From: a virus
Taxonomy: Duplodnaviria; Heunggongvirae; Uroviricota; Caudoviricetes
Reading direction: 5' to 3' (one strand)
DNA length: 10,789 nucleotides
Virus record (IMG/VR): IMGVR_UViG_2541047124_000012
Span: 1 to 10,789 of that record
The notes under the pieces are model-generated. The model was not told the DNA's origin, did not search any database, and saw nothing but the letters and a program-made list of their open reading frames with translations. Below are positions 8,086 through 9,661 of the stretch, one piece after another (positions within the stretch are counted from its first letter, which is position 1; the number at the start of each line of letters is the position of its first letter). The translations under genes were made by a program, and so were the position numbers.

Positions 8086-8591
8086 CGCGATAACGGTCAA
8101 AAATTATGGCGCTGACACTTTTGTGCCACTGGAGATGACTGTACCTAAGTTCAGGGGAGAAGAACACGTCCGGTGGGATGGTCGGGCCAGATTTAAAGGG
8201 CAGGTCATGGCTCCAGCCTGTACGCTGGCAATGGAGGCTGCCTGGCGGGAAATTGATATGGGAACCACGCCACTCAGGGATTTACTGCCGGTCCAGAGAA
8301 TAAATTCCTGTTACGGTTACACCACTGTGATCTTGCAAGTGCAGGAAAGTAGGTCTACACGGTAACGCGAGTGCGTGTAACTTTTGATGTCATTCCCGTA
8401 GAAACACCGGACAAATTTTCGCTGACAGGTCATGCAGAAGGTATAAATCTGCAGATTATGGACAATTACGGATATCCGGCAAGAGCCGGAAAAAGCATGC
8501 CGCCTCTAATTCTCAGTGGAAGATGGACTTGATTATACTCATTGCATTGTCAGAAATAGTTATCCATTAAAGGCTGGCTATTCCAAACAGG

Positions 8592-8619
8592 ATGTTGATT
8601 ACAAAAATGTAATCAACAT
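8592..8619. promoter_or_regulatory. Perfect 28-bp palindrome ATGTTGATTACA-AAAA-TGTAATCAACAT upstream of the AcfC-like gene
   Basis: Read directly: 12-bp arms with a 4-bp A spacer, 26 bp upstream of a consensus TATAAT at 8646..8651 and about 165 bp upstream of the ATG at 8784. Confidence 0.5.
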
Positions 8620-8783
8620 GTAAGGTTTATACTCTTCAATATGCGTATAATTTTCCTTATTTTGTTGACTTTAAATAACAAGCTATGCACGAGGTAAAGT
8701 CGGATAAGTTTATCTGGATGTAATATATATTATTTGTAGTGTTTATAACTTTATTTCATGATAACCAATAAAAGGAGTTTTTT

Positions 8784-9542
8784 ATGAGGAACATAATGGC
8801 AGGTTTTTTAATATTCCTGTCTTCTGCTGCTTATGCTGATATCAATCTGTATGGTCCTGGTGGCCCGCATACAGCCTTGCTTGATGCAGCCAAACTTTAT
8901 GCCGAAAAAACAGGTATTATAGTGAACGTTCATTACGGCCCACAGAACAAATGGAATGAAGATGCCAAAAAAAATGCAGATATCTTGTTTGGCGCATCAG
9001 AACAATCTGCTCTGGCTATCATTCGGGACCATAAAGACAGCTTCAGTGAAAAAGATATTCAGCCTCTTTATCTGCGAAAAAGTATTTTACTGGTAAAGAA
9101 AGGTAATCCTAAAAATATCCGGAGTATTGACGACCTGACCAGACCTGGGATTGGCGTAATTGTTAATGATGGTGGTGGTACCAGTAATACATCAGGCACT
9201 GGCGTCTGGGAAGATATTGCCGGACGTAAAGGGAATATAGAAACTGTCGCCGCAATCCGAAAAAATATTATTTTATATGCGCCCAATAGCGGAACTGCAC
9301 GTAAGGCTCTTGAGAATCAGCCTGGAGCAGATGTCTGGATAACCTGGGCTGACTGGGCAGCCAGTAATCCAGAAATTGGTGATGTCGTGGAAATAGCGCC
9401 AGACTACGTGATATGGCGTGATATGAACATTACAGTACGTCAGGATGCAAATGATGAAACCCGTCGATTTGCAGAATGGCTACAAACCGATGAAGCGGCG
9501 CCTGCATTCAAAAAATATGGCTGGACCAGGAAAGGCACTTGA
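8784..9542 (+). CDS. Periplasmic solute-binding protein, AcfC-like (accessory colonization factor C family), with signal peptide
   Basis: Track ORF; AAGGAG 6 nt upstream of ATG; N-terminal signal peptide MRNIMAGFLIFLSSAAYA. Motifs NLYGPGGPH, FGASEQS, LVKKGNPKNI, GTSNTSGTGVWEDI, APNSG and KKYGW match my memory of AcfC. Gene and flanks are AT-rich relative to neighbours. Confidence 0.85.
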   Translation: MRNIMAGFLIFLSSAAYADINLYGPGGPHTALLDAAKLYAEKTGIIVNVHYGPQNKWNEDAKKNADILFGASEQSALAIIRDHKDSFSEKDIQPLYLRKSILLVKKGNPKNIRSIDDLTRPGIGVIVNDGGGTSNTSGTGVWEDIAGRKGNIETVAAIRKNIILYAPNSGTARKALENQPGADVWITWADWAASNPEIGDVVEIAPDYVIWRDMNITVRQDANDETRRFAEWLQTDEAAPAFKKYGWTRKGT

Positions 9543-9548
9543 CATCCT

Positions 9549-9576
9549 CGTCCTTCAGGACGTGGATTCTTTTTCC
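9549..9576 (+). terminator. Weak candidate terminator after the AcfC-like gene
   Basis: Hairpin CGTCCT-TC-AGGACG (9549..9562) followed after 5 nt by TCTTTTTCC; the T-run is not adjacent to the stem. Confidence 0.3.
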
Positions 9577-9661
9577 GGATGCCGCGCCAGCGGCATGTAG
9601 GGGCAGCTCACAAAACGGAAAAAATTGTACGCTAAGCCTCGCCAGGTGAACTGAATTCATT

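Follow-up and report, generated by a model that had tools for sequence, protein, structure and literature searches.

The phage-borne paa/adfO cassette of Escherichia coli and its AcfC/PEB3-family binding protein

The gene paa (porcine attaching-and-effacing associated gene), also called adfO, is a virulence-associated gene of enterohaemorrhagic and enteropathogenic Escherichia coli (EHEC and EPEC) that has been described as z2053 next to z2054 (ckf, encoding a Hok-family toxin) in prophage CP-933O or O-island 57, inserted at ompW, and that is always accompanied by ckf (PMC9144400; PMC8565820). It serves as a routine marker in the virulence typing of EHEC, EPEC and enterotoxigenic E. coli (ETEC), and O-island 57, its home, has been linked to severe human disease. 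In an adfO mutant, adherence to HeLa cells is impaired and several proteins are secreted in smaller amounts (PMC8565820), and the gene is induced in strain EDL933 in bovine rumen and rectum contents as determined by RNA sequencing (PMC8524897). The described relatives of its product include AcfC of Vibrio cholerae, a periplasmic protein that is required for mucin chemotaxis, contributes to the colonisation of infant rabbits, is no adhesin for Caco-2 or HT-29MTX cells and, in His-tagged form, binds heparin, chondroitin sulfate and mucin in an enzyme-linked immunosorbent assay (ELISA) (PMC5976639). Another relative is PEB3 of Campylobacter jejuni, which takes 3-phosphoglycerate (3-PG), phosphoenolpyruvate (PEP) and related phospho-acids as ligands in a buried cleft. 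Here we analyse a paa locus in positions 1 to 10,789 of the IMG/VR virus record IMGVR_UViG_2541047124_000012 (the whole stretch of 10,789 nucleotides is hereafter called the window), where an original prediction made from the sequence alone had placed an AcfC-like periplasmic binding protein, as a moron inside a prophage, at 8370-9600.

The open reading frame (ORF) in question is paa/adfO. A megablast search with positions 8300-9800 retrieved 100% identical DNA from chromosomes of E. coli O157:H7, O26, O103 and O111, where RefSeq has the gene as "AcfC family adhesin Paa", and the records of PPompW phages match at 99.9% identity and are annotated "Paa/adherence factor AdfO". At least 80% of the same query is present in 577 of 5426 complete E. 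coli genomes. With sequence and annotation both matching paa/adfO, the gene is therefore already known, and since it is a routine typing marker within O-island 57, its presence does no more than mark the window as a prophage of the EHEC type. The earlier observation is thus confirmed and its interpretation supported for a feature that is not new; the original prediction had not named the gene as the well-studied paa/adfO of O-island 57 or CP-933O. Our best joint explanation, which we hold at a probability of roughly 85%, is that the window carries the known paa/adfO moron cassette and that its exported AcfC/PEB3-type product would bind anions in the periplasm and affect colonisation indirectly.

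Membership in the AcfC family, which had been proposed from motifs, was borne out by database searches. Pfam assigns Paa to SBP_bac_11 (5.5e-34), and phmmer against the Protein Data Bank (PDB) gives near full-length matches to PEB3 (1.2e-81, Paa residues 11-248) and to AcfC (PDB 4jb7, crystallised with D-aspartate; 3.5e-81, residues 16-248). An AlphaFold2 model of Paa was built from an alignment of 21 sequences, Paa included, that spans Escherichia, Salmonella, Yersinia, Edwardsiella, Enterobacter, Aeromonas, Vibrio, Francisella, Helicobacter and Campylobacter, and reached a mean predicted local distance difference test score (pLDDT) of 90.9 and a predicted template-modelling score (pTM) of 0.85. 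In Foldseek searches, this model matches AcfC 4jb7 with a target-normalised template-modelling (TM) score of 0.97 and a root-mean-square deviation of 1.3 Å and PEB3 with TM scores of 0.94-0.95 (0.95 for 3fj7), its next structural neighbours being ModA, SubI and Sbp at 12-19% identity. The model shows Paa as a member of the AcfC/PEB3/Paa family with a predicted class II, two-lobe periplasmic binding-protein fold that superposes on the solved members. Across the 21-sequence alignment the motifs SNTSGTG, GPGGPH, PNSG and W-TW-DW are invariant, and 67 of the 67 invariant columns are intact in Paa, which is itself part of the alignment. Within SNTSGTG, T136/S137 of Paa align to T138/S139 of PEB3, which reportedly form the ligand site defined by mutation in the work of Min et al. 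from 2009. We rejected Paa as a binding protein of sulfate, thiosulfate or molybdate transporters, as it scores 18 to 23 bits against NCBIfam models with cut-offs of 62 to 470 (22.6 versus 288 for Sbp, 19 versus 308 for CysP and 18.3 versus 62.5 for ModA) and stands without permease genes in the window. Paa is thus related to the Sbp, CysP and ModA transporter families but is not a member of any of them.

The signal peptide and the strong Shine-Dalgarno sequence that had been read from the DNA both stood up to inspection. In the N-terminus of Paa, MRNIMAGFLIFLSSAAYA followed by DINLYG, a basic n-region precedes a hydrophobic core (mean Kyte-Doolittle value of 1.87) and an A-x-A motif as the predicted Sec cleavage site, and the first residue of the crystallised mature PEB3 chains in the PDB aligns to D19 of Paa in the phmmer alignment. 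The mature protein has a computed mass of ca. 25.8 kDa and would not be a lipoprotein, because Paa contains no Cys; a Sec-type signal peptide lacking a lipobox is a trait of the AcfC/PEB3/Paa family that Paa appears to share.

No cognate ATP-binding cassette (ABC) permease or ATPase gene had been seen nearby, and this holds for the entire window of 10.8 kb, in which Pfam scans of the main ORFs returned phage, regulatory and toxin-antitoxin families or no match. Neither of the findings that would have spoken against the original interpretation, a transporter-type binding protein with permease genes or a uniform base composition, was made here. In none of eight other genomic contexts of family members does the gene lie inside an ABC operon. 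It is found between aga and phosphotransferase system genes in E. albertii, beside traT in Edwardsiella, near remnants of a type II secretion system in Raoultella, next to cdtABC in Campylobacter and, in V. cholerae, within the pathogenicity island, flanked by toxT/tcpJ and the gene of a TagA-type mucinase. In Francisella, genes for a major facilitator superfamily transporter and a GHL10 protein lie upstream and a gene for a flavin adenine dinucleotide-dependent oxidase downstream, with no ABC transporter among these neighbours, and in Aeromonas the gene sits in a P2-like prophage between gpA and ogr. The Enterobacter gene follows ca. 690 nt after the end of an ABC operon that has its own binding protein, and a functional link to this operon may exist. 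Orphan status is thus a trait of the AcfC/PEB3/Paa family. On the V. cholerae contig (6001-11131), the acfC homologue lies ca. 1.5 kb, with one ORF between, from the gene of a TagA/StcE-type mucinase (Peptidase_M66), a proximity that fits a mucus-related role of the family. The Aeromonas gene, on a contig of Logan accession SRR25820356 (6001-6774), encodes a protein 54% identical to Paa, and the gpA-ogr interval that it occupies is a classic cargo position of P2.

A scan of IMG/VR yielded 44 loci, nearly all of them from the same E. coli prophage; among the others, one copy of 67% identity has an integrase gene on one side and tail-fibre genes on the other, and a copy of 86% identity follows just after lambda-type tail genes. 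AcfC-family genes appear to have been picked up independently by unrelated phages.

The gene travels as part of a self-contained unit of which the coordinates are given in Table 1, and which is also carried by plasmids of ETEC and E. albertii. Using blastn against ETEC-type plasmids, we found matches to 8590-9602 at 88.7% and to 8580-9602 at 85.9% identity, and in the copies carried by plasmids of E. albertii and of ETEC of porcine and bovine origin the homology (86-89%) is confined to 8580/8590-9602. In a three-way alignment it begins at the palindrome, runs through TATAAT, the Shine-Dalgarno sequence, the ORF and both hairpins, and fades by ca. 9610. In total, 219 plasmid records match part of a query covering 7900-9750, and among the 30 matches listed, 28 cover the cassette span only. 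The interval first proposed therefore agrees with the cassette at its end (9602-9610), but its start took in a piece of a fimbrial pseudogene (8370-8532).

Table 1. Positions of the paa cassette, its elements and adjoining features in the window
Feature	Position	Strand	Remarks
Whole paa cassette (upstream region, coding sequence, two 3' hairpins)	8590-9610	+	Ca. 1.0 kb; recurs on plasmids
AT-rich intergenic/regulatory region	8533-8783	+	GC content 0.279
Perfect palindrome ATTACA-AAAA-TGTAAT (ATTACAAAAATGTAAT)	8598-8613	.	Left edge of the cassette; identical in prophage and plasmid copies
TATAAT hexamer	8646-8651	+	Best candidate -10 element, lacking a good -35; invariant in three diverged copies
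Shine-Dalgarno sequence AAGGAG	8772-8777	+	6 nt before the ATG; conserved in plasmid copies
paa/adfO coding sequence	8784-9542	+	252 amino acids, intact; class II periplasmic binding protein, AcfC/PEB3 family
Predicted Sec signal peptide of Paa	8784-8837 (residues 1-18)	+	From inspection of the protein sequence
Terminator-like hairpin CGTCC-TTCA-GGACG with T-rich tail	9549-9575	+	Starts 7 nt after the stop codon; conserved in plasmid copies
Second GC-rich hairpin ATGCCGC-GCCA-GCGGCAT	9579-9596	+	Right edge of the cassette, read from the sequence; stems nearly identical and loop variable in plasmids
Fimbrial-subunit pseudogene	8111-8582	+	Amino acids 22-182 of a 195-residue subunit; two frameshifts, one in-frame stop
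hok/sok type I toxin-antitoxin locus ("ckf", z2054)	9731-10033	+	Prophage backbone accompanying paa, outside the cassette

The upstream region moves to plasmids together with the gene, which argues for autonomous expression. The promoter of its own that was originally proposed for paa has only indirect support, from this joint movement and from the published induction in EDL933 (PMC8524897). The TATAAT hexamer is shared by all three aligned copies, but a simple scan for the sigma-70 consensus found no -35/-10 pair directly upstream of paa, and the five promoter-like sites that were found are no excess over the 4.1 expected from shuffled sequences. An Rfam scan of the whole window returned sok only, with no riboswitch or leader upstream of paa. 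The palindrome ATTACAAAAATGTAAT is a candidate operator or regulator-binding site, and occurs once upstream of the gene in 46 of 60 fetched loci; the 14 loci without a match include all 10 of the more distant family loci (L007-L016). Compared with the consensus sites of CRP, Fur, ArcA and TyrR, it gave no convincing match to any of them.

The claim of markedly AT-rich DNA held for one part of the locus. The 251-nt stretch that separates paa from the preceding ORF has the lowest GC content of any window of this length in the 10,789 bp, for which the mean is 0.468 (standard deviation 0.06) and the minimum outside this region 0.315. The paa coding sequence is only moderately low at 0.439, with 0.348 at third codon positions (GC3). 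Its neighbours have GC and GC3 values of 0.575/0.653 (P gene), 0.515/0.479 (DUF1627 gene) and 0.507/0.662 (mok/hok), and other genes of the prophage reach values as low as those of paa (GC3 of 0.30 for dicB and 0.36 for the rem-like ORF). As a whole, the cassette has a GC content of 0.413 versus 0.493 and 0.484 in its 1-kb flanks. The strong AT bias thus resides mainly in the upstream intergenic stretch.

What remains of value in paa is its mechanism, because the product is named an adhesin although its fold, signal peptide and ligand site are those of a protein that binds small molecules in the periplasm and that has no transporter. We propose that paa would be transcribed in the lysogen independently of the lytic genes of the phage and that Paa, once exported to the periplasm, would bind a small, host-derived anionic ligand as its relatives do, be it 3-PG, PEP, phosphate, citrate, D-aspartate or possibly sulfated groups. 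It might then promote adherence and gut colonisation indirectly via a chromosomal partner, such as a chemoreceptor, a transporter or a secretion-related pathway, and not as a surface adhesin. An indirect mode of action is probable for an "adhesin" that is folded like a periplasmic binding protein, and the lower secretion of other proteins by the adfO mutant points to an indirect effect on adherence. Several points weigh against this explanation: no canonical sigma-70 promoter was found upstream of the gene, the argument for its own promoter being built on the lone conserved TATAAT and on published expression; the base composition of the paa coding sequence is unexceptional within a mosaic prophage; and published work names both Paa and PEB3 adhesins, for which antibody or surface data may speak for a location on the cell surface. 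A genuine surface adhesin, which would reach the cell surface or the medium and directly bind epithelial or mucus receptors, would agree with these names and with the terms adhesin and adherence factor in RefSeq and phage records, with the poor adherence of adfO mutants to HeLa cells (PMC8565820), with the ELISA results for His-tagged AcfC and heparin, chondroitin sulfate and mucin (PMC5976639) and with an association of Paa with attaching-effacing adhesion of porcine EPEC (PMC5976639; PMC8524897). However, Paa has a complete periplasmic binding-protein fold and no anchor, Cys, outer-membrane or autotransporter domain, PEB3 takes its small phospho-acids in a buried cleft, the adfO mutant also secretes less of other proteins (PMC8565820), and AcfC is found in the periplasmic fraction while cell adhesion stays the same when it is deleted or heterologously expressed (PMC5976639). 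We therefore consider direct adhesion by Paa unlikely.

It also seems doubtful that Paa serves transport by docking on a chromosomal ABC importer for sulfate/thiosulfate or another anion, which would widen the uptake range of the lysogen to host-derived anions such as 3-PG, PEP or sulfate. The fold and the nearest neighbours outside the family, the transport proteins ModA, Sbp and SubI, would suit such a role, and Min et al. reportedly proposed in 2009 that PEB3 is a transport protein and found that 3-PG enhanced the growth of wild-type C. jejuni and not of PEB3 mutants; but the family members examined never lie within an ABC operon, and the NCBIfam scores for transporter binding proteins fall far under their cut-offs. 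Decay of the paa ORF into a passenger without current function, as has happened to the adjoining fimbrial relic, might be suspected from this pseudogene and from a prophage with truncated integrase and exonuclease genes. Yet the ORF is intact, has the same sequence in many EHEC lineages (100% conservation), keeps every column that is invariant in the family alignment, is transcriptionally induced in bovine gut contents (PMC8524897) and gives mutant phenotypes (PMC8565820). Conservation and published phenotypes together effectively exclude a decaying passenger. A further reading, which we rate as less likely than not, is that Paa is no adhesin but a horizontally mobile periplasmic sensor, which would detect an anionic metabolite from the host and connect to a chemoreceptor, a transporter or a secretion pathway encoded by the chromosome. 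If Paa is such a sensor, AcfC-family genes would be a recurrent single-gene cargo and form a general "gut-niche sensing" module spread by phages, with E. coli lambdoid prophages, the Aeromonas P2-like prophage, other prophage ends, IncF plasmids and the Vibrio pathogenicity island as independent carriers. With the ligand and the partner of Paa in hand, one could explain by what route a cargo gene of a phage makes gut colonisation more successful.

Directly upstream of the cassette lies a relic of a fimbrial-subunit gene, annotated in RefSeq as "fimbrial protein, frameshifted; internal stop", that lacks both of its ends, i.e., the signal peptide and the C-terminal strand. With the fimbrial protein of an IncF plasmid as query, tblastn detects it at 74-80% identity in three frames over 8111-8578, and blastn aligns 8118-8582 at 85% identity to a subunit gene within an intact chaperone-usher operon that an IncF plasmid carries. 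The stretches 8054-8365 and 8370-8532 are both part of this dead gene, the latter being its third quarter. The relic ends at 8582, 10-20 nt or less from the start of the paa unit, and is outside the functional unit. This arrangement suggests either a joint origin of paa and the relic in a plasmid-like fimbrial locus or an insertion of the cassette into the fimbrial gene.

The location of paa between phage genes of a prophage was correctly called. Upstream, the minus strand carries an integrase fragment, a fragment of the Exonuclease VIII gene, DUF1482, dicB, DUF1391 and a cI-type (DicA-like) repressor gene, and the plus strand encodes Cro, YdaT, an O-like protein with a DnaT domain, replication protein P and a DUF1627 protein; downstream of paa follow sok RNA, mok/hok and a rem-like ORF. 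Rfam detects sok with 103.9 bits at 9731-9880, mok begins at 9821, and hok occupies 9878-10033 (Pfam HOK_GEF, 1.7e-21). The hok/sok module (9731-10119) is closed by a strong terminator at 10102-10119. In the spacer of ca. 90 nt between the end of the cassette (ca. 9610) and the beginning of hok/sok homology (ca. 9690) lies a perfect 24-nt palindrome, CCGATATGGGAATTCCCATATCGG, at 9662-9685, for which a recombination junction and an RNA hairpin are both possibilities. No tRNA genes were found in the window.

Homology to other E. coli prophages covers the DUF1627 gene as far as ca. 7893 and resumes in the hok region at ca. 9690-9712; in between, these prophages hold no paa but other genes, among them DUF977, DUF7167, DUF4406, QueH and a RelE/ParE pair. 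Shared flanks with differing genes between them mean that this slot is a variable cargo position, in line with the moron character that had been proposed: paa has prophage genes on both sides, is absent from related phages at the same slot and belongs to a cassette with a composition unlike its flanks.

The right arm of the window (5014-10789) is 99.3-99.8% identical to prophages of the PPompW or CP-933O type, and the left arm is a different mosaic. Of the integrase gene only the 3' 0.55 kb is left here, and it adjoins an Exonuclease VIII ORF that is itself truncated (931-2175; region 346-2175). In this region ca. 440 nt take the place of ca. 2.7 kb that in O103:H2 strain 12009 comprise xis, the missing portion of int and the distal exonuclease sequence. 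Because int and xis are missing, this copy of the prophage is probably unable to excise by itself, and paa is here probably carried by a defective prophage; intact PPompW phages of 44 kb carry the same paa cassette. Bases 1-420 match a DinI-like/integrase locus of O157:H7 genomes at 100% identity; in strain TR01, this locus and paa are ca. 420 kb apart. No complete E. coli genome in the collection searched covers the window from end to end (coverage was 78%, and 85% with the left arm as query), and the window may be a recombinant of two lambdoid prophages or come from an unsampled strain.

Compared to the known paa/adfO loci, the window is without any difference in the gene itself. Its DNA over 8300-9800 is identical to paa of porcine EPEC O45, z2053 of O157:H7 EDL933 and the PPompW phages, and it shares with the CP-933O, O-island 57 or PPompW locus the prophage family as well as the flanking DUF1627 gene, fimbrial pseudogene and hok or "ckf"; it differs in the mosaic of its left arm and in the truncated integrase and exonuclease genes. 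The paa-like genes on plasmids of ETEC and E. albertii are likewise orphans and share the palindrome, TATAAT, the Shine-Dalgarno sequence and the 3' hairpins with the window cassette, and their product is ca. 92% identical to the Paa protein encoded here; unlike the phage-borne gene, they are flanked on IncF plasmids by insertion sequence elements, once by the STa enterotoxin gene, and by no phage genes. PEB3 of C. jejuni (2hxw, 3fj7, 3fir and 3fjg) has the same fold as the Paa model, ca. 53% identity to Paa in the structural alignment and conserved ligand residues, but is chromosomal and N-glycosylated, with 3-PG, PEP, phosphate and citrate as defined ligands. What we take to be the glycan sequon of PEB3, DFNVS, is absent from Paa, which has DSFSE at this place in the alignment. 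AcfC of V. cholerae (VC_0841, PDB 4jb7) resembles Paa in its fold, with 52% identity in the structural alignment, in the signal peptide and in the invariant ligand-site motifs, and is likewise an orphan on a mobile virulence element with a link to colonisation. It differs in residing on the Vibrio pathogenicity island under ToxT control, beside tcp, acf and tagA, whereas Paa is carried by a lambdoid prophage, and the role that has been shown for AcfC is mucin chemotaxis, not adhesion (PMC5976639).

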